A stretch of DNA of 64,000 nt from Pseudomonadota bacterium (GCA_043825875.1 JBDRRF010000109.1:39662-103661), one strand, 5' to 3'; numbered from the stretch's first letter, positions 4,664 through 26,101 are shown. Program-made: numbers and translations. Notes: a model not told the origin generated them from the sequence alone.

Positions 4664-4713
4664 TGCTAACGTGTGGCTGAGGAGCGGCGGATATGCCGTC
4701 AACTCCAGCCGGT
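4664..4713 (-). repeat. attC site interrupted at its R'' end by an intron remnant
   Basis: TGCTAAC-GTGTGGCTGAGGAG-CGGCGGATATGCCGTC-AACTCCAGCC; R'' replaced by intron sequence. Confidence 0.7.
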
Positions 4714-4930
4714 GTATGCCCTGCATGGGCGTGAACTTATGGGGTGAAAGTCCCCTGTGTGTAAATCCTGTTAATTGTTAATTTCATTAGCATAAACATT
4801 AGCTGAAGGCAAGGGCGGAATCGTGAGGTTTTGTCTGAACGCGGAGCGAACCGGAAGGTGAACCGAAGGCGAAAGCGACTGAACGGAGCGGCCAACCCTA
4901 AGTGCAAAGCTATGAGCCGACGAACAGAAA
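4714..4930 (+). mobile_element. 5' fragment (domain I) of a class IIC group II intron
   Basis: GTATGCCCTGCATGGGCG...GGGTGAAAGTCCC...TTAGCTGAAGGCAAGGG...TCTGAA...GACGAACAGAAAC follows the IIC domain I pattern; no RT ORF or domain V follows. Confidence 0.7.
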
Positions 4931-5144
4931 CAAGGTAAAATGGTGTCAAGTTTATATTTGACCTTTAATTACTTTTTCTTTTAAAGTTTGAATCTCTTTT
5001 CTTAAATTATTGTCTGTTTTTGTCATACATGCAATCTTTTGGACAATGCTGCTTACTGTGCTATATGTGTTGATAAAAAATACTTCTTTTATAATGTTTA
5101 GATCATCTCCACGTATTTGACGCAATTAATTAATTGCAACATAT

Positions 5145-5262
5145 TTAGCTTGTAATATAATAGAAATAGATATCGGATTATTTGTTCCAGAAAATTCCAT
5201 AATGAATAATAATGCTTAAATTCCGCTAACACTTTACATTGATTAAATCAACTTATTTTTTA
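5145..5262. repeat. Non-coding element duplicated at 27993-28118
   Basis: Shared blocks TTTGTTCCAGAAAAT, CATAATGAA, TGCTTAAATT, GCTAACACTTT, CATTGATTAAATCAAC. Confidence 0.8.
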
Positions 5263-5342
5263 AGTTTAAATGACTGGTTTTGTGTGTAAGTAATTGTCGG
5301 GTATTATTTTAATTTCTTCTTCATGAATGGGGGTGGAGTAGG

Positions 5343-5368
5343 GTGGCCCTCTCCCACGAGAGGAGAGG
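5343..5368. repeat. REP-like hairpin (second copy at 28268-28302)
   Basis: GGCCCTCTCCCACGAG(A/T)GGAGAGG in both copies. Confidence 0.6.
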
Positions 5369-5602
5369 AGAAAAGGAAAAACGGTTGTATATGATTGACG
5401 AATATGGTTTTTAAGTCTGATTTGAAATTACGGCAGTTCTTTCCGGATTCGCTCGCTATTTCGTGTGGGTAACTCTCTCCCTTGGATGCAGTTCGATAAA
5501 CATAGGGCAACATCAAAGTCCATCCTGTTAATTCTGTCTAAAAACCTTGGTTAATATATGTGTTGCGTCAACTGTTTACCCACACAAAACAGCGAAAAGC
5601 CA

Positions 5603-7246
5603 TCAGTCTTTAAAAGGTGATTCAATCATTTCAAACGGGTCATAATGATGACCACGGCCTACTCTTAATGAACCCCATATTTCGCCTATAGTTGCATATT
5701 CTTTACAGGCTTCTATCATGGTTGGAGTAAGATTGACATTTCCCTGCTTGTCTTCTTCTGCCAGTTTTTTCATTAATTCTTTTACAGCATTATTATTTCT
5801 CTTCTTTTTTATATCTCTTACTCTCTGAACCTGTTCGGCAGTCGAAGCTTTAGATACCACATGAATAGGAATTTTATGGTCTTGTTCAGGTGGAACCACC
5901 AAATCATTAATTCCTATAAGTTTCATGGTTCCACTTTCTATATCTGTCTGACGCTTTAATGCCGCTTCATCTATCATTGCCCTTATCCATCCGTCTTTAA
6001 CTCCTTCTTCCAGACCTCCCTTGTCAAGTATCTTCTGAAGAAGTTCCCATGACCTCTTTTCTACCTCGTTTGTAAGCCACTCAACATAGTAAGATCCGGC
6101 AAGAGGATCAACTACATTGGCAATTCCGGTTTCATAAGCAAGGATATTTTGCGTACACATTGCAATCCTGGTTGCAATTTCCGTAGGAAGACATAAAGGC
6201 TCATCGTACATTACAGGATCAATGGCATTACAGCCGCCAAGGGCAGCAGACATAAGCTGTACTGCAATTCGCCCTATGTTGTTAAGAGGCTGCTGGGCTA
6301 TAGCTGTAAGTCCGGATACCCGTGCTGCGATATAAAGCTTTTGTGCTCTCGGATTCTTGGAACCGTATCTTTCTCTTGCTATTTTTGCCCATATTCTTCT
6401 GGATGCCCTGAATTTCGCAATTTCTTCAAAAAAATCCATCCATATTGTAAAAGTAAAAGGAACCCTGTTTGCAAATTCGTCAAAATTTAATCCGCGCTCT
6501 ACAAGCCGGTCGGCAAATGCTATTGTGGAAGCAAACCCCAGTGCTGTTTCCATAACAGCTGGCGTCCCTTCTTCTGAAACATTGTGTGCGCTTGTATGAA
6601 ATGTTGCAAATCTTAATTTATTTTTCGAACAGTATTCGACTACATCAACAGCAAGTTTGGACCATAAATCCAGAGGCTGAGGGGTAACAAAGCCGCTGTA
6701 GTACTGGCAATATAAATTAAGAGCCGCACCGCCGTTTAAGGCAGAATAAGGAACGCCCTGCTTTTGGGCCATAGCAAAAAACATACAGGGCAATACCGGG
6801 CCGCTTGCCCCTGATGATTCGAAAGTGATTGTTGTTTTGTCAATAGGAAAGCCTTCTAAAATGGTTTCAACATCATCTAATGAGGATACCGGTATGCCAA
6901 CCAAACCGGCTTCATCCACTGCCATAGGATGGTCAGCATCAATTCCGACCTGAGTGGGGTAATCATTTACAACCTCAACTCCTTCCGATCCTATGCTGGC
7001 CAGATACTTCAGTCTTTCCATGGAATCTTTTGCCGAACCGAATCCTGAAAGAAATCTCCTTGTCCAAATCTTGTTTCTAAACATTCCCTTATATAAACCT
7101 CTTGTATAAGGGTATTCCCCGGCTTCACCGAGATCCCTGTCATAATCAAAATCTTTTAAGTCTTCGGGCTTATACATCTCTTTTAATGGTATACCTGAAG
7201 CCGACTCGAACTTCCTGTTTGCGTCTTCCTGAATCGTTGTTTTCAT
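5603..7246 (-). CDS. Coenzyme B12-dependent acyl-CoA mutase, large (substrate-binding) subunit; specificity atypical
   Basis: 'GEYPYTRG', 'FFEEIAKFRASRRIWA', 'DPLAGSYYVEWLT', 'ATIGEI' motifs of the MCM/ICM family. Confidence 0.92.
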   Translation of the reverse strand: MKTTIQEDANRKFESASGIPLKEMYKPEDLKDFDYDRDLGEAGEYPYTRGLYKGMFRNKIWTRRFLSGFGSAKDSMERLKYLASIGSEGVEVVNDYPTQVGIDADHPMAVDEAGLVGIPVSSLDDVETILEGFPIDKTTITFESSGASGPVLPCMFFAMAQKQGVPYSALNGGAALNLYCQYYSGFVTPQPLDLWSKLAVDVVEYCSKNKLRFATFHTSAHNVSEEGTPAVMETALGFASTIAFADRLVERGLNFDEFANRVPFTFTIWMDFFEEIAKFRASRRIWAKIARERYGSKNPRAQKLYIAARVSGLTAIAQQPLNNIGRIAVQLMSAALGGCNAIDPVMYDEPLCLPTEIATRIAMCTQNILAYETGIANVVDPLAGSYYVEWLTNEVEKRSWELLQKILDKGGLEEGVKDGWIRAMIDEAALKRQTDIESGTMKLIGINDLVVPPEQDHKIPIHVVSKASTAEQVQRVRDIKKKRNNNAVKELMKKLAEEDKQGNVNLTPTMIEACKEYATIGEIWGSLRVGRGHHYDPFEMIESPFKD

Positions 7247-7677
7247 ATTTGCTTCTCCCTGACAGGATTTAAATCCCTTTTGCTTTTCTTTTCAACAAGG
7301 GATGTAATTGTTTCTACTATTACATTAGACATTGCTCCGGGCCCGATAACTGCGTCAACACCCAGTGCCTTTAGTTCATCAGGAAAAGGATCCGGAATGG
7401 TTCCGCCTACAATTACTACAACATTGTCCATTCCCTCTTTTTTCAACATATCAATTAACTTGGGAACTAGTCTGGTATGATTTGATGACTGACAGCTTAT
7501 ACCAACAACATCTGCATCTTCTTCTACAACGGCCTTAAAAATTGATTCGGGACTTTGAAATCTTCCAAGATATACCACTTCCATACCGGCATCACGCAAC
7601 ATTGCGCTTACAATTTTGGCTCCTACATCGTGCCCGTCAAGACCAATTTTTGAAATTACTGCTTTTATCTGCTTCAT
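7243..7677 (-). CDS. B12-binding small subunit of the acyl-CoA mutase
   Basis: DxHxxG motif 'GLDGHDVGAK'; 'VGGTIP'; overlaps the large-subunit start by 4 nt. Confidence 0.95.
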   Translation of the reverse strand: MKQIKAVISKIGLDGHDVGAKIVSAMLRDAGMEVVYLGRFQSPESIFKAVVEEDADVVGISCQSSNHTRLVPKLIDMLKKEGMDNVVVIVGGTIPDPFPDELKALGVDAVIGPGAMSNVIVETITSLVEKKSKRDLNPVREKQI

Positions 7678-13571: not shown

Positions 13572-14735
13572 ATGCATGGGAAACCATTGAGACGCAGCTT
13601 TTGTGTGTCCCGAATCGGGAAGTACTGCAACCTTAATATTCTACTCTGCTTTTTCTTGTTTTTTCTCTATTGCCTTTCGCCACATTGGGTTGAAGCGAAC
13701 CCGGTCGTAAACACACCAGGTAATTTGCAGCCCAAAAAGCTTGTTATCGGCACCAAACAATCGCCACCCTTTGCGTTTAAGGACCAGACGGGTCAATGGA
13801 AAGGTATCAGTATCGAACTGTGGGAGGCCATTGCAAAAAACCTTAAGTATGATTACGTTTTTAAGGAATATGATCTGCAAGGCTTACTTAATGCTGTTGA
13901 AAACAAATCCATTGATGCCGCTGTTGCCGCACTTACCATTACTTCCGAGCGTGAAAAACGGTTTGATTTCACCCACCCTTTTCATACCAGCGGTCTTGGC
14001 ATAGCAGTTTTGCAAGGCAAAGAGAATTCCTGGCTGGTTGTGTTTAACCGGTTCTTATCCCCGGCTTTTCTGGAAGTTGTTTTGGCGCTTGTCCTGTTAC
14101 TGTTTGTTGTGGGACTTCTTGTCTGGTTTTTTGAAAGGAAGAAAAACCGGGAACAATTCGGCGGAAGCTTTCTGGCAGGTATTGGTTCAGGCTTCTGGTG
14201 GTCGGCGGTTACCATGACAACGGTTGGATATGGTGACAAGGCCCCGCGAACCCTCGGAGGCCGACTGGTCGGCCTCGTGTGGATGTTTATAGCCATAATT
14301 ATTATTTCCAGCTTCACAGCGGCGATCACCTCAACGCTCACGGTAAATCAGATTCAGCAACATGTCAGGGGGCCTGAAGATCTTAATCGGGTGAAAGTCG
14401 GGTCAATAAAACATTCCACCAGCGCTTCATATCTTAACACGCAACGGATTTCTTTTCAGGATTACTCCTCCGTCATGGATGCTTTGCAAGGGCTGGAGGC
14501 CGGAGAAGTTGATGCGGTTGTTTATGATGCGCCTATATTAAGGTATCTGGTAAACCGGAAAATGCAAAACAAGATTCAAGTTTTGAACACCATTTTTGAA
14601 AAGCAACAGTACGGGATTGGCCTTCCGACAGCAAGTCCGCTAAGGGAAAAGATTAACCGGCTGGTGCCTGCGATAATAAGCGATAGAAAATGGCAGGATA
14701 TTTTATTCCGCTATCTGGGAGAACCGGCTTCTTGA
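13572..14735 (+). CDS. GluR0-like ligand-gated K+ channel (SBP family 3 plus pore)
   Basis: 'TMTTVGYGD' selectivity filter between split substrate-binding domains ('SPPF', 'TITSERE', 'VVYDAPIL'). Confidence 0.88.
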   Translation: MHGKPLRRSFCVSRIGKYCNLNILLCFFLFFLYCLSPHWVEANPVVNTPGNLQPKKLVIGTKQSPPFAFKDQTGQWKGISIELWEAIAKNLKYDYVFKEYDLQGLLNAVENKSIDAAVAALTITSEREKRFDFTHPFHTSGLGIAVLQGKENSWLVVFNRFLSPAFLEVVLALVLLLFVVGLLVWFFERKKNREQFGGSFLAGIGSGFWWSAVTMTTVGYGDKAPRTLGGRLVGLVWMFIAIIIISSFTAAITSTLTVNQIQQHVRGPEDLNRVKVGSIKHSTSASYLNTQRISFQDYSSVMDALQGLEAGEVDAVVYDAPILRYLVNRKMQNKIQVLNTIFEKQQYGIGLPTASPLREKINRLVPAIISDRKWQDILFRYLGEPAS

Positions 14736-15100: not shown

Positions 15101-15139
15101 GGCGCGATAGGAGCGTCCTACTCAACGCCCTTGTTGGCC
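15101..15139 (-). repeat. Half attC of the TA cassette
   Basis: ...CTACTCAACGCCCTT-GTTGGCC overlaps the vapC stop; the R' arm is missing. Confidence 0.5.
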
Positions 15140-15516
15140 TATGCATGTTTTGGAAAATATTTTACTCCTGGTAGATCCTTAAAATGGGTGTCCAGTGTCC
15201 ATATATCACATTGATATAATTTTGCAGTGGCAAAAATTATGCTATCTGCCATCGGCAATTTATGTATTAGACTCAGCTTGGCAGCACTTAAAGATAGGCT
15301 TATGCTAAGTTCGATTACTTTTCCTTTTTGCATTGCAGCTACTGATTGCAACGCCTCATTCTCTCCGGCTTCACGTAACACGACTTTAAATACTTCATAT
15401 ATGGTAATGATAGGGACAATTAGGGATGAAGCGTCTTCTAAAGGCATAGAAAATTGTGTTGAATTAGGCCCACCAGAAAAGTATTCCAGCCAACCAGACG
15501 AATCGACAATGTTCAT
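15139..15516 (-). CDS. vapC: VapC PIN-domain toxin
   Basis: 'NIVDSSGWLEY', 'IYEVFK', 'LPMADSII', 'WTLDTHF'. Confidence 0.92.
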   Translation of the reverse strand: MNIVDSSGWLEYFSGGPNSTQFSMPLEDASSLIVPIITIYEVFKVVLREAGENEALQSVAAMQKGKVIELSISLSLSAAKLSLIHKLPMADSIIFATAKLYQCDIWTLDTHFKDLPGVKYFPKHA

Positions 15517-15719
15517 AAGCGGTCACTTTCACGCTCGAATTCTGTATCAATTCCTTTTATAAACCCACGGAGATCTGAAATATCTCTGTCAGGAATTAAT
15601 TCGATTCTTCCTTCATACTCGATGACTGTTAATTTTTGTCCAGGGCGTAATCGCATAGTTTCACGGATTAACTTAGGAATAACCACCTGAAATTTTGGAG
15701 AAACTGTTACTGTTTGCAT
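15513..15719 (-). CDS. AbrB/MazE-type antitoxin
   Basis: 'MQTVTVSPKFQVVIPKLIRE...LRPGQKL'; 4-nt overlap with vapC. Confidence 0.9.
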   Translation of the reverse strand: MQTVTVSPKFQVVIPKLIRETMRLRPGQKLTVIEYEGRIELIPDRDISDLRGFIKGIDTEFERESDRL

Positions 15720-15753
15720 GATTGCACCTCGATCGATTTGGTTTTTGTAATAC

Positions 15754-15781
15754 ATTATCATGATCGATAGGGTCTTGTCAA
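15754..15781 (-). promoter_or_regulatory. Sigma70 promoter of the TA cassette
   Basis: TTGACA-16 nt-GATAAT inside the cassette, overlapping the palindrome ATCATGAT. Confidence 0.6.
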
Positions 15782-15789
15782 TTTCAAGA

Positions 15790-15838
15790 GGCCAACAAGG
15801 CAGTTGAGCAGCTCGCCTGCTCAACTGCCTTGTTGGAT
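15790..15838 (-). repeat. Short, perfectly palindromic attC-like site
   Basis: GGCCAAC-AAGGCAGTTGAGCAG-CTCGC-CTGCTCAACTGCCTT-GTTGGAT; its R' GTTGGCC matches the TA cassette R''. Confidence 0.7.
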
Positions 15839-15909
15839 GATATGGTTTCAAAAATGGGGCAGTAAATTACCGTCTATTTGAGAAACGTATAAAAGCATAG
15901 ACGTTACTA

Positions 15910-18959: not shown

Positions 18960-19046
18960 AGCTAACGGCGAAAATAACCCACGCCGCCGCCGTTATGTGG
19001 ACTAAGCCCGTATTTACTCGGCGTTGGGTTAATTGATTTGTTGTGC
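18960..19046 (-). repeat. attC site (87 bp)
   Basis: AGCTAAC...ATAACCCACGCCG...CGGCGTTGGGTTAAT...GTTGTGC. Confidence 0.88.
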
Positions 19047-21960: not shown

Positions 21961-22182
21961 GGCTAACGAGTCTGTAGAATAACTCCAAAATAAAATTTTT
22001 ATGCAATTTTCAGGGGTCTTTTTACCCCTCCCCATCGCGTGATCATCGATTGTAGGGCATTCTCCAAGGTTGTTTTTTCATACATCCTACGCTGAATGCC
22101 GCTTCCAGACTTATTCTACAGGCTCAACGGCTGCTTCACGCGCGGCGGCTTTTTGCCGCCGCTGTGAAAGCAAATGTTAGGC
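21961..22182 (-). repeat. attC site split by a MITE
   Basis: GGCTAAC [MITE] AAC-GGCTGCTTCAC...GTGAAAGCAAAT-GTTAGGC. Confidence 0.85.
21968..22125. mobile_element. 158-bp MITE (non-autonomous IS derivative)
   Basis: 15-bp TIRs GAGTCTGTAGAATAA / TTATTCTACAGGCTC (1 mismatch), flanked by a direct AAC duplication. Confidence 0.8.
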
Positions 22183-22190
22183 CTGCTTCT

Positions 22191-23096
22191 TTATTTGCAC
22201 GGCAATGCTGCTGGTTCAAGCATTGCGGGTGCATTGAGATCACGCCAAAACTCCATCGCAGTGGCGGTTCTAAATTTGACATGGCGTCTCAATGATTTTT
22301 CCAACGCGAAGTTATATGGCGCAGGCAATTTAAGTGCCATCTCTCTCGGCTTCCCTTCAAGGGTTTCCTGATTGCTAAATTGTAATCGCTTAGAGTACGC
22401 CAGCTGTAAAAACAAAACACCCAGATGGTATATGTCTATCCGAGTATCAGTAGGGCCAAATTCGCCAGGATTTACAACTTCAGGTGGCAGCATCCACTGC
22501 GCTCTTGTGTTGGACAAATCTATCTCATGCAGCAATTTAGAAACACCCAAATCGCCCAACTTAAATTGAATTACTTTTTCTTTTGAAGGCACCATTTCAT
22601 CTCTGATAAAGGTAGCGAACACATTCCCCTCATGGATGTCCTGATGCACGAAATTATTTAAATGCAAATAGTTGACTGCTTGAAGAAGTTGCCTGGCCAT
22701 TGGCATAAGCCACGACATTCCATTCAAATTTTCTAAATCGAAGATCGCCGAAACTGGACTAAAGCACTTTTCTGCAATAATATAGAAGGTATCTCGATAC
22801 TCGAATGCATCGTAAACAAAAGTGATAAATGGGTGCCTTAGTTGCATAAGGCGTTTAAATTCACCTTCAGCATTTTCTTTAACTTTTTCATAAGTGCCAA
22901 TTGGTTTCAGTACCTTTGCTGCGAGTTCATTGTTCCAAACATCATGGCAAGAATACACAATTCCGAAATTACCCTCACCAATTCTTTGACCTATCGTATA
23001 GGTGTTCCCGGTCATCAGGCTTGTAATTGACTCGCCTTCAGATGGCTGAATAGCTTGTTTCGGAAGCTCTTGAGGAAGTTGCTCAGATTCTGTCAT
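22191..23096 (-). CDS. Cassette: Hanks-type Ser/Thr protein kinase
   Basis: 'IGEGNFGIVY', 'AAKVL', 'HQDIHEGNV', 'KLGDLG', 'PPE', 'DIYHLG'. Confidence 0.88.
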   Translation of the reverse strand: MTESEQLPQELPKQAIQPSEGESITSLMTGNTYTIGQRIGEGNFGIVYSCHDVWNNELAAKVLKPIGTYEKVKENAEGEFKRLMQLRHPFITFVYDAFEYRDTFYIIAEKCFSPVSAIFDLENLNGMSWLMPMARQLLQAVNYLHLNNFVHQDIHEGNVFATFIRDEMVPSKEKVIQFKLGDLGVSKLLHEIDLSNTRAQWMLPPEVVNPGEFGPTDTRIDIYHLGVLFLQLAYSKRLQFSNQETLEGKPREMALKLPAPYNFALEKSLRRHVKFRTATAMEFWRDLNAPAMLEPAALPCK

Positions 23097-23114: not shown

Positions 23115-25378
23115 ACCGGGTAGGTCAGGGGTGTCACCACCCCTTTCCCCCCTAAGAACCGTACGTGATAGTTTCCCATCATACGGCTCAAGCCTCTCAA
23201 AAGGCAGCCCTTGGGGGGCGGCCCGGTTGTTTTACCTCCTAAGCGGCTTTCATGGCCCTGAATTCATGGGCCGACATTGCCGCTAACAATTTGCTGTCCT
23301 TTATATTCCGTCTGTACCAGAAATATTCTGCGTACTCCGGCATATAAGGGTTTGCATCGGCCTTTATCTTTATATATCTTCTTATACCAATGGCATGTAA
23401 TTTTACAACCTCATAAATCTTGCTTTTCCCTGAGGCTGTTTTTGCACGGACAGCAAATCGATGTTTTCTACCGGAAGCTGACCAGTAATGTTTTATCAGC
23501 CATCCTTTCGATTTGTTTTGGTGACGCCGTCTGACTATACGCCATAGTTGTTCAAAGACATAAGTATCGATTAGACCGAAGGCTTCCGATGCTACCACAT
23601 GGCGGTGGTAATTTGCCCAGCCTCGAAGCATTTCATTCAACTTCTTGATCAAGACCGGCATCGGAGCGCTGACGTGTTTTCGGGTTAACGCTCCCACTTT
23701 CCGTACAAGGGCGAGAACTCCCTCTTTTTCCGGTGTTATGTGCAGCACACGACCGTGCTTTCGGAAAGTTTGTCCGAGGAACGTAAATCCGTTTTTAATA
23801 TAGGTGATCGTGGTCTTTTCCTGTGACAGTTCAAGACCACGCTTCGCAAGAAATACTTCTACCGCCGGTTTAACCTGATTTTCCAACAGGCGTTTTGATT
23901 TGCCTGTGATAATAAAATCATCGGCGTAGCGGACGAAGTTGACACGGGATCTTCTGGGAACTGCACTATGAACGGCTTCTTCCAGACCATCCAGCGTCAT
24001 ATTTGATAATGTGGGACTAATAATCCCACCTTGCGGAGTACCCTTTCGAGTAGGATATGTAATGCCGTTTTCTACATACCCTGCTTTCAGCCACTTTCCA
24101 AGAACGACTTTGTCCATCACAATATTGCGAAGCATCCATTCATGCGAGATATTGTCAAAACAGCCTTTAATATCTCCCTCCAGCACCCATGTCGCCGAGT
24201 TTGGCTTTGACAGGGCGTTAAAGGCCGCCTGGATGGCATCGGCACATGACCGGCCTTCACGAAAGCCGTATGAGTTCCTGTCGGCGGTCGTTTCCGCAAC
24301 CGGAGCCAGCACTAATTTGTACAATGCCTGCATCGCCCGGTCATACATTGTCGGGATTGATAATGGCCGTTTCTTACCGTTCTTCTTGGGTATATAAATT
24401 CTTCTAAGTGGTTGAGGTTTGTAGCCACGTCTGCGAAAGCTGTAAACAGCCCGCCATTTGGCTCGGGTGCCTTGCCACAGAACACCGTCAATGCCAGGAG
24501 TCTTTTCCCCCTTGTTGGAGGTCACTCGTTTCACAGCCAGTAACTTGGCGTAGAGAGAGCGGGTTAACAGATATTGTAACGCTTTAACTTTATTCCACCT
24601 GTTTTCCTTAACAGCCTTTGCGATACGCACCTGCAGCCTTCTAACCTGATGCCGGATATGGTTCCAGTTTATGGATTTCCATTTCAAGGCAAGGTCGATG
24701 AGTGCACCGGCTCTAATGGCTGTCTTTTGCTTTCTCATCTCCAAAGGTTCTCCAGGTTCTCTCGCAACGAGACACCAGCCGGAAGTCTGCACGCTGTTCA
24801 CCGGAACGGATGCTCACGGTTTTTGCGTTGAGTCATATTTCATACTCTATCCATCGGGTTATCCGATAGCATTTGCTTTCTCCGACATCTCTTTCCTGCT
24901 GCTCCAACAGCACGCCTTACGGTAATGCCTGCCCTACATTGCATAGGGCGAAGAAGCAGGCTTAACACGTTGAACATAATTGATCCAATGAATGACTTAG
25001 GTGCGCCCTGGACACCGGCGGTACTACAGTTCCGTGCAAGCACGTTAGAGACTTGCAACCTTACCGCTTACGACTCACACAGGGGAGACGTCTTCGACCT
25101 GTTAATCCTCAGTAGGTCTATCCATGCTTGACGATGCGTGCGGGCATTCAATTAACTTCACCATATCATTCGTCCCTTGCCCTTAACCGGGGAGGTTCCC
25201 GGAGGGGTCGGCCTGTCACCATTTCGACCCGATTCGGTACTTTGTCAGTGGGGCTTCGCACCCTGTCATCAGCGCAACAGTAGCACGCCCACGTAGGGAC
25301 CGGCAGGAACATGCCGGGTATTCTCCAGATGAAATAACCATCTGTTAATACACTCAATTATGCGACTTCGTGTCGCAA
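23115..25378 (-). mobile_element. Complete group II intron (IIB/chloroplast-like RT) inserted in an attC R' box
   Basis: 5' TTGCGACACG; domain V GAGCCGTATGATGGGAAACTATCACGTACGGTTC; domain VI ending CTACCCGGT; removal restores GTTAG|GCCT. Confidence 0.9.
23239..24801 (-). CDS. ltrA: Group II intron reverse transcriptase/maturase without an HNH endonuclease domain
   Basis: RT0 'WKSINW...VRRLQVRIAKA', 'TPGIDG', 'RPLSIPT', 'GTPQGG', 'RYADDF', X domain 'LRGWANY'; no C-terminal HNH. Confidence 0.95.
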   Translation of the reverse strand: MNSVQTSGWCLVAREPGEPLEMRKQKTAIRAGALIDLALKWKSINWNHIRHQVRRLQVRIAKAVKENRWNKVKALQYLLTRSLYAKLLAVKRVTSNKGEKTPGIDGVLWQGTRAKWRAVYSFRRRGYKPQPLRRIYIPKKNGKKRPLSIPTMYDRAMQALYKLVLAPVAETTADRNSYGFREGRSCADAIQAAFNALSKPNSATWVLEGDIKGCFDNISHEWMLRNIVMDKVVLGKWLKAGYVENGITYPTRKGTPQGGIISPTLSNMTLDGLEEAVHSAVPRRSRVNFVRYADDFIITGKSKRLLENQVKPAVEVFLAKRGLELSQEKTTITYIKNGFTFLGQTFRKHGRVLHITPEKEGVLALVRKVGALTRKHVSAPMPVLIKKLNEMLRGWANYHRHVVASEAFGLIDTYVFEQLWRIVRRRHQNKSKGWLIKHYWSASGRKHRFAVRAKTASGKSKIYEVVKLHAIGIRRYIKIKADANPYMPEYAEYFWYRRNIKDSKLLAAMSAHEFRAMKAA

Positions 25379-25436
25379 CTAACGCTGCTATTCAGCCGCG
25401 CGGCTTTTTGCGTCGGCTGAAATAGCCTTGTTAGCC
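25379..25436 (-). repeat. attC site (R' interrupted by the intron)
   Basis: Minus strand GGCTAAC...GCAGC-GTTAG|intron. Confidence 0.9.
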
Positions 25437-25446
25437 CCTTTAGAAT

Positions 25447-26022
25447 TTAATTAGACAACTCTTGGTTACGGGGTTTGTAGTCACCAGATTCAAGAGTTTG
25501 TTTGATCGTGAAGTAAACATTGTATAAAAAATCATATTCATTGTCCTCGATTCTCTTCATTACTGTTGAGAATGGAAATGCCATTACCTCGGAGATCTTG
25601 CTGCGGACAGCGTAATCAGTCCCATATTCATCAGTTACGGTGACCCATTCCATATTGAGGTCAGCAATGCATTTATTCCCAAGGTATCCACCAAGAATTT
25701 CAACAACTTTTTCGTTTGAATGATTCGGTGATTTACTGATTTGCCATGCACGGAATGCAAGATCACATGTCTTTAAATTTATAACATTATCGTTGGGTAA
25801 ATAAGTAGCTACAAACCTTGGGCATAACTCCACAAGCGATTTTAGATGATTTAATTCATCACCTGTTATAACGGAAATCTCCTGAGGAACAGGGTCGATG
25901 GTTTCTTTATGAGCGATTACATTGCCTTCAGGCGTTTTAATATTGATTGGTTCAGGTTCTTTTGACATATCAGAGCATCCCATAGTAATGAGCAAAAAAA
26001 ATAAACACCAAAAACTTCGCAT
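25447..26022 (-). CDS. Cassette: lipoprotein, DUF3806-like
   Basis: TMGC lipobox; 'LGGYLG...WVTVTDEYGTDYAV...FPFSTVMKRIE'; start moved to MRSF, downstream of the attC. Confidence 0.7.
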   Translation of the reverse strand: MRSFWCLFFLLITMGCSDMSKEPEPINIKTPEGNVIAHKETIDPVPQEISVITGDELNHLKSLVELCPRFVATYLPNDNVINLKTCDLAFRAWQISKSPNHSNEKVVEILGGYLGNKCIADLNMEWVTVTDEYGTDYAVRSKISEVMAFPFSTVMKRIEDNEYDFLYNVYFTIKQTLESGDYKPRNQELSN

Positions 26023-26034
26023 AGTTTGTTCCTG

Positions 26035-26101
26035 GGCTAACTTGGAGCTCAATGGACCAGACCGCGTAGCGGTATGGGTCCATTGAAGCGATCCGTTAGG
26101 C
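26035..26101 (-). repeat. attC site (67 bp)
   Basis: GGCTAAC-TTGGAGCTCAATGGACC...GGTCCATTGAAGCGATCC-GTTAGGC. Confidence 0.88.

Follow-up and report, generated by a model that had tools for sequence, protein, structure and literature searches.

According to the cited sections of reviews, attC targeting is a property of class C group II introns, all other lineages homing to one long site (PMC4424553). In the sources as cited here, the IIC-attC introns, for example S.ma.I2, are attC specialists that lack an endonuclease and keep this habit at the level of a lineage, in which they resemble the introns reported below; they have a class C protein and a IIC RNA and insert into the bottom strand, opposite to transcription, in the R″ box at TTGT/T (PMC3001079, PMC7923331). 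UHB.I2 was described as one metagenomic case by Sonbol and Siam (2021, PMC7923331), who, in the cited parts of their paper, describe the flanking exons as poorly conserved and speculate on the role of a stem-loop. Like the intron studied here, UHB.I2 is of CL1/IIB1 type, lacks an endonuclease, encodes a protein of ~500 aa, has the ends UUGCG..GU, is co-oriented with the cassettes and directly follows an attC. Its attC, c(7295..7364), and the intron itself, c(5096..7296), overlap by 2 nt, which is the same GTT+2 register as here, and the printed sequence, compared by eye, contains an EBS1-like loop with AACG (PMC7923331). A survey of Shewanella mentions CL1 and class E introns in integrons, with CL1 in S. 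putrefaciens 200 or S. saliphila; the CL1 mention is a single sentence, from which site, strand and lineage are absent (PMC9229058).

The window analysed here is the whole 64,000-nt stretch of DNA from a Pseudomonadota bacterium (GCA_043825875.1, JBDRRF010000109.1:39662-103661), and it carries an intron of this kind. The initial annotation had mentioned rare reports of IIB introns in cassette arrays; the case in question is UHB.I2, which appears to be an intron of this kind inserted at the identical base. We consider it very probable (about 0.85) that the window intron belongs to a mobile CL1/IIB1 lineage that retrohomes into the top strand of attC sites, with the pairing of AAC in EBS1 to GTT in R′ setting the register.

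The intron and its cassette array

The features of the locus are as follows (positions counted from the first letter of the window).

23115..25378, minus strand: group II intron of CL1/IIB1 type, 2264 nt, ends UUGCG...CCCGGU (Rfam RF00029 and RF02012; boundaries common to homologues)
23239..24738, minus strand: intron-encoded protein, 499 aa, RVT_N, RT and maturase X (Pfam); ATG start conserved in the alignment
23156..23189, minus strand: domain V with AGC triad (Rfam and sequence)
23118..23152, minus strand: domain VI, bulged A at 23121, seven bases from the intron end (Rfam and sequence)
25035..25057, minus strand: EBS1 hairpin, loop holding EBS1 CUAACG at 25043-25048 (stem covariation, column scan)
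25379..25384, minus strand: IBS1 CGTTAG, final hexamer of the 5′ exon, including the GTT of R′ (6/6 pairs with EBS1)
25123..25128, minus strand: candidate EBS2 AGCAUG (weak covariation; 2/6 pairs with exon −8 to −13 in the window copy, by eye)
25010, minus strand: candidate EBS3 C, complementary to G, the first base of the 3′ exon
25377..25436, minus strand: target attC, with R″ GGCTAAC and an R′ now made of GTTAG and two bases of the intron (covariance model E=3e-7, with a near-identical site in the training set)
22191..23096, minus strand: downstream cassette gene, Ser/Thr kinase domain PF00069 (Pfam), ATG 19 nt past the intron
22122..22182, minus strand: attC of the kinase cassette, R″ complementing the restored R′
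25447..26052, minus strand: upstream cassette gene, DUF3806 (Pfam), preceded by an attC at 26035-26101

Sequence comparison confirmed that the element at 23115-25378 is a real and complete group II intron of a mobile type, for which splicing and retrohoming are predicted. Rfam matched DV/DVI at 23191-23115 and domain I at 25318-25179, both on the minus strand; the AGC triad of DV, the bulged A of DVI and the domain I fold are all present, and the RT-maturase ORF in domain IV is uninterrupted, with YADD intact. Pfam detected no HNH endonuclease in the encoded protein. The interval first annotated, 23115..25436, was correct at 23115 but took in the upstream attC (25436-25377) at its other end, the intron itself stopping at 25378. 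Contigs of the probable source run span both junctions but are not independent data. Folding domains I-III from the single sequence gave no useful information (z=−1.4), and there was no excess of promoters within the intron (2 vs 3.1 expected).

Among solved structures, the intron protein scored 526 bits against 6ME0, 154 against LtrA and 148 against GsI-IIC; 6ME0 is described in the cited text as a IIB1 intron with a CL1 protein (PMC8643678). The score of 6ME0 over GsI-IIC indicates that the intron is not IIC, as had been claimed from the start. Its class is CL1/IIB1, with CL1 preferred to CL2 on two grounds, the 6ME0 match and the likeness to UHB.I2. The Rfam domain I model matched is D1D4-7; the IIC introns of two other loci (L089 and L104) match D1D4-3/-1 instead. 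The window intron does not share the marks of IIC-attC introns, namely a IIC RNA with a class C protein and insertion at R″ of the bottom strand, opposite to the cassettes. Its ends, UUGCG...GU, also depart from the consensus GUGYG...AY.

The intron interrupts an attC in the R′ core at GTTAG|GC, 2 nt after GTT, between the DUF3806 and kinase cassettes. A covariance model of attC was built from 22 uninterrupted sites, with the structure set by hand, RNAalifold giving no consensus; 87.7% of its cells are paired, against 29-42% when the structure is slid. In the window it gave 16 matches. They comprise 13 distinct attC-like sites, every one on the minus strand and 6 of them from the training set, a palindrome hit once on each strand, and a single reverse match. 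The cassette ORFs, these 13 sites and the intron thus share the minus strand, and the co-orientation first noted is real. The array is a CALIN, a same-strand series of attC sites with single-gene cassettes on a contig without integrase; the four IntI genes of the genome that exceed the cut-off lie elsewhere, on other contigs. The bottom-strand hairpin of the target attC (25436-25377) has z=−3.5. At the array end is a PIN/MazE-type toxin-antitoxin pair, with an adjoining ligand-gated ion channel gene (window 15139-15851, 13572-14735).

The junction reads GCGTTAG|GCCT, as first proposed, with CGTTAG as the exon end and GCCT as the 3′ exon, and removal of the intron gives GTTAGGCCT, the complement of the kinase cassette R″, AGGCCTAAC, at 22176-22184. 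The cost of insertion is probably low, because the interrupted attC retains GTT and its hairpin (−17.5 kcal/mol) and the kinase start lies 19 nt downstream. Since the intron lies before that start codon, no reading frame depends on its being spliced out.

The window had also been said to offer three unoccupied targets. CGTTAG is indeed present at 4666, 18962 and 21963, but an intact attC only at 18962: at 4666 a group IIC intron remnant, on the opposite strand, has cost the attC its R″, and the GTT at 21963 follows the end of a 158-bp inverted-repeat element in R′ of the attC at 22122-22182. The remnant, at 4714-~4945 on the plus strand, is the 5′ part of a IIC intron that entered the attC at 4664-4719 on its bottom strand, at GT|T of R″. 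It was identified by alignment, with no match from Rfam, and is similar to the start of a degenerate IIC intron carried by a class 1 integron plasmid. The array therefore bears traces of both types of attC-targeting intron. The 158-bp element is non-coding, has terminal inverted repeats (GAGnCTGTAGAA), occupies 21968-22125 and has GTT on both sides. Ends resembling it occur before the intron in L013 and after the IIC intron of L089 (G000:C68 ~64703-66470, plus strand), which suggests that it may belong to an insertion-sequence family also targeting R′.

Pairing of EBS1 with the R′ core

The hairpin loop at 25043-25048 had been put forward as EBS1, and its CUAACG does form 6/6 pairs with CGTTAG. 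Since such a 6-mer is expected by chance ~0.1 times in domain I, the assignment is carried by position and comparative data. The hairpin stem covaries across 21 aligned introns, and a column scan of 67 introns found that positions 331, 332, 333, 335 and 336 best complement exon −1, −2, −3, −5 and −6. AAC is present in the EBS1 loop of 66/67 in-group introns. In 61/63 junctions the offset of AAC is the same as the spacing between GTT and the intron (permutation mean 30, maximum 44); the matching registers are 36 at +2, 23 at +3, one at +1 and one at 0. Single bases of EBS1 and exon also track each other (CGAACG/CGTTCG, GCAAAC/GTTTGC, AUAACA/TGTTAT, AACGGG/CCCGTT). On a tree that excludes the loop, the register changes at least seven times. 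Since kin are not independent, register and EBS1 were also compared over five independent pairs, of which four changed in the same way, none in the opposite way and one showed no difference (p=0.125). This covariation supports the early proposal that EBS1 pairing is the means of recognition.

Pairing of EBS1 with IBS1 exceeds 90% at −6 to −3 and falls to 67% at −1, with a mean of 5.25 of 6 (n=67). The target is accordingly CGTTNN/GTTNNN: the GTT core of the CGTTAG first proposed stands, but the strict hexamer does not. Elsewhere the pairing is loose. A scan for EBS2, with positions taken from the alignment only, gave a best-pair score of 3.98 vs 3.56 ± 0.08 after permutation, and intron positions 252/253 of the candidate EBS2 covary weakly with exon −9/−10. 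The candidate EBS2a base, again at an alignment-assigned position, is mostly unpaired with exon −14 (C against A in 36/63). The EBS3 candidate is C in 36/39 register-2 introns and G or A in 19/26 register-3 introns (6 not located); it pairs with exon +1 in 24/40, and the base shifts with the register as the R′ consensus would require. Strong pairing at the conserved R′ bases and weaker pairing elsewhere suggest an intron tuned to the conserved part of the site and tolerant of the rest, so that, with EBS2 and EBS3 loosely paired, one intron can use many different attC sites.

The intron ends vary within the lineage. Among 44 introns with both ends, 23 have U1 and penultimate G, 19 have G1 and penultimate A, and 2 are mixed, so that 42/44 swap together. 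The changes on the tree number at least nine and at least seven for the two ends, and about four of five independent pairs change in the same way, none in the opposite way (p=0.125). The first and penultimate nucleotides have been reported to interact, and a penultimate G in RmInt1 impaired the second step, according to the cited part of that work (PMC4238363). The exchange of G1/A for U1/G looks compensatory, as judged from a few independent events.

Relatives, attC association and mobility

Protein searches gave 79 genome, 79 metagenome and 34 viral loci, and a DNA search of ~800 genomes of the same class and phylum added more. A domain I profile defined 67 unique in-group 5′ junctions, the window included, for which a score of 180 or more, a located 5′ end and no fewer than 12 nt of exon were required; duplicates were left out, as were in-group hits with a 5′ end that was unlocated or at a contig end, the excluded in-group loci being L002/L144, L016, L088, L096, L097, L105/L135, L106, L111, L164 and L165. 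Because the profile was trained on 21 rows whose flanks had already been inspected, junctions were also counted by protein identity alone. GTT lies 0-4 nt before the intron at 43/45 junctions of at least 60% protein identity vs 3/45 out-group junctions, the exceptions among the former being L005, whose attC-like flank has TTT in place of GTT, and L015, where two introns abut in tandem; by the profile, GTT is present at 64/67 in-group junctions. A lineage specialised on the R′ core, as initially inferred for the window intron, is therefore what the close and distant junctions indicate.

Many of these junctions also test as attC sites. A hairpin test was passed by 41/65 junctions, against 7/650 shuffles and 12/512 other GTT sites; the covariance model matched 32/66 junctions, 31 of which end exactly at the expected R′ end, and either test was passed by 45/66. 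On the opposite strand at the junctions the model had no hit at E<=0.5, and among 49 out-group loci none below E=1. Of the 21/66 junctions that passed neither test, most keep, by eye, an L′-type motif or an R″ broken by another element. Those not attC-like by eye are L013 (after the end of an insertion element), L015 (the tandem junction), L017, L025, L069 and L173. The tests of homologue flanks favour attC at no fewer than 45 of 66 junctions, with a few copies and a subclade at 51-55% identity in non-attC flanks.

Quick trees of the protein place that 7-row subclade, together with L214, inside a well-supported 48-row clade; both have other EBS1 loops and non-attC flanks, and a sister group (L180, L183, L192 and L203) again uses CGTTAG. 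In the subclade (L194, L197, L198, L199, L210, L221 and L186), EBS1 fits other targets, several of them short tandem repeats, for example GUUCGG against CCGAAC repeats in L197; some of these flanks are near contig ends and perhaps unreliable. On these trees the attC habit is not strictly monophyletic, and the mixed targets within the clade indicate that attC targeting is a habit of the lineage that can be lost or re-gained. The hosts, according to record titles, are mostly Thermodesulfobacteriota genome bins. A search of 72,556 plasmid records found no copy of the lineage, and clinical mobile integrons have thus given no hint of it so far.

Several copies have unusual structures. ORF-less or ORF-deleted members (L093, L091, L098, L115 and L112; 809-1000 nt) keep the R′ position unchanged. 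In L006, from ~4592, the attC intron has a second group II intron, starting with UUGCG, inserted between its DV and DVI, and in L218, at 2376, one is likewise inserted just past a DV. In L015, at 725, an intron 5′ end is joined to the 3′ end of another copy, which may be a tandem, a circle junction or an assembly artefact. L104 and L167 each have a IIC intron at R″ and a CL1-lineage intron at R′ of one attC, on opposite strands, back to back. Decayed short fragments of the same intron (91-93% identical) lie outside cassette arrays, at G000:C79 154668-154981 and C84 58014-58080.

It could be argued that EBS1 homes to any CGTTNN and that harmful copies outside attC are lost, the attC pattern reflecting survival. 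This accords with the in-group copies that lack a recognisable attC (L013, L017, L025, L069 and L173) and with the retargeting of related subclades through a simple change of EBS1. L017 is a nearly identical copy, and its flank can pair with EBS1 as well as with the candidate EBS2. CGTTAG, however, occurs 468 times and CGTT[AG] 8711 times in the genome, so that EBS1 alone hardly explains the attC preference; many of these places are presumably harmless, and yet at least 45/66 copies are in attC, very recent identical copies among them. Moreover, the L′ motif tends to hold its distance from the splice site. We regard homing by EBS1 alone as improbable.

The L′ motif, T-N-A, is at G-9 in 20 and G-8 in 6 of the register-2 sites, and at G-9 in 5 and G-8 in 17 of the register-3 sites, against 11 vs 8 in uninterrupted attC sites; it is ambiguous or missing in 11/59 sites. 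Counted from the splice site, the T of the motif thus tends to fall at −16 and its A at −14 in both main registers. A naive Fisher test of this spacing gives p=4e-4, with only four independent pairs and a median p=0.5. Recognition at −14/−15 is known in other CL1 introns, as stated in the cited part of PMC8643678. Given the four independent pairs, and host-specific attC families that could yield the same pattern, contact at L′ is offered as a hypothesis.

A second alternative puts structure first: the protein would bind the folded attC hairpin, or the strand freed by the integrase, and EBS1 would only set the register. The top strand of the target attC does fold (−17 kcal/mol, z=−3.0), EBS2 is weak, the candidate EBS2a is unpaired with exon −14, and a stem-loop role is what Sonbol and Siam speculated on in the cited part of their paper (PMC7923331). 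Against this, folding of the top strand pairs GTT with R″, which would compete with EBS1, and some copies stand where R″ has been displaced by a IIC intron (L104, L167) or where the end of an insertion element precedes GTT (L013), although either insertion may have come first. This alternative seems to us unlikely, if slightly less so than homing by EBS1 alone, and retrohoming into the top strand with a register set by EBS1 is the reading that we retain.

Near-identical copies in relatives point indirectly to mobility. Four copies in one genome are identical at 2304-2305 of 2305 nt and have four different pairs of flanks, which indicates recent homing and could not result from cassette duplication; there are two further near-identical intron pairs. 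These observations bear on the possibility that one ancient insertion was spread by cassette shuffling, or that the arrangement reflects a chance insertion or an assembly artefact. The intron does lie within a mobile cassette unit, and no empty allele was seen: contigs of four runs, which cannot prove absence, held no joint skipping the intron, and the kinase cassette without intron was not found in 41 genomes or in viral contigs. However, all 44/44 3′ exons differ, no single intron-cassette unit was found in two arrays, identical introns are flanked by different cassettes on both sides, four registers are in use and contigs bridge both junctions. Passive spread or artefact can be given almost no credence, and homing into attC remains our reading.

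Crossover in attC takes place at G|TT, which assigns the intron to the cassette downstream. Of 39 junctions with enough sequence, 16 had a recognisable attC downstream, and the restored R′ matches its R″ at 46/64 variable positions (permutation mean 28, maximum 42; n=16). This match supports the junctions and a clean insertion into the cassette core site, and it upholds the claim, made from the window copy, that insertion 4 nt past G|TT makes the intron part of the downstream cassette.

In sedentary integrons the bottom strand of attC is mostly on the leading template (25/30; PMC5371416). A bias towards the lagging-strand template, where the top strand would be exposed to an En-minus intron, was considered and is not supported by GC skew in 11 copies on 7 contigs: the intron strand is G-rich (lagging template) in 2, C-rich in 6 and unclear in 3, including the window copy. 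Two of the six C-rich copies are only 3.7 kb apart and some are weak, and cassette movement or inversions could blur the skew.

Proposed route of homing and relation to known systems

Under the reading that we favour, transcription of the array would yield intron RNA, which would be spliced with the help of its own maturase. The resulting particle would pair EBS1 with the top-strand R′ core, the step to which the covariation speaks, and a contact at L′ probably assists. Reverse splicing would then take place 2 nt after GTT in the window, the place of AAC in the loop setting 0, 1, 2 or 3 nt, and reverse transcription would start from a host primer, as in other En-minus introns (cited section of PMC4424553). 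A fuller account can be put forward tentatively: a widespread CL1 lineage may be an integron specialist in which AAC of EBS1 acts as an 'anticodon' reading the R′ GTT and the protein reads the L′ T-N-A 14-16 nt from the splice site; EBS1 may have slid repeatedly to suit L′-R′ spacings, the U-G/G-A end swap may have arisen or reverted several times, and spread may have two tiers, homing and riding the downstream cassette by means of the integrase.

The lineage represents a second, independent route into integrons, through the other strand, the other box and another recognition, and it exploits the only invariant bases of a very variable family of sites. Its members may serve as natural experiments on how far EBS2, EBS2a and EBS3 can relax and on what the first-penultimate contact tolerates, and possibly as a tool for inserting sequence into cassette arrays while leaving the cassettes intact.

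No published description of the lineage was found in the literature searched, which excludes most subscription journals; it has one published matching member, UHB.I2, whose mechanism was not recognised there, and one passing mention in Shewanella. The cited parts of the UHB.I2 paper do not contain the lineage, the EBS1-GTT pairing, the sliding registers or the end swap (PMC7923331). T.el4h (Th.e.I3) and EcI5, as described in the cited parts of PMC8643678, share with this lineage the protein class and the layout of domain I, with alpha, EBS1 and coordination loops, but use EBS2 and EBS2a pairing for one long target, whereas EBS2 is weak and EBS2a unpaired here. Two-thirds of bacterial IIB1 proteins carry an endonuclease, according to the same part of that source (PMC8643678). 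Compared with T.el4h and EcI5, this lineage lacks the endonuclease and has many copies with U1/penultimate G ends. The IIC-attC introns, in the sources as cited, combine an EBS1 of 3-4 bp with an upstream hairpin, whereas the lineage described here is CL1 and uses the top strand, the R′ box and an EBS1 of 6 bp.
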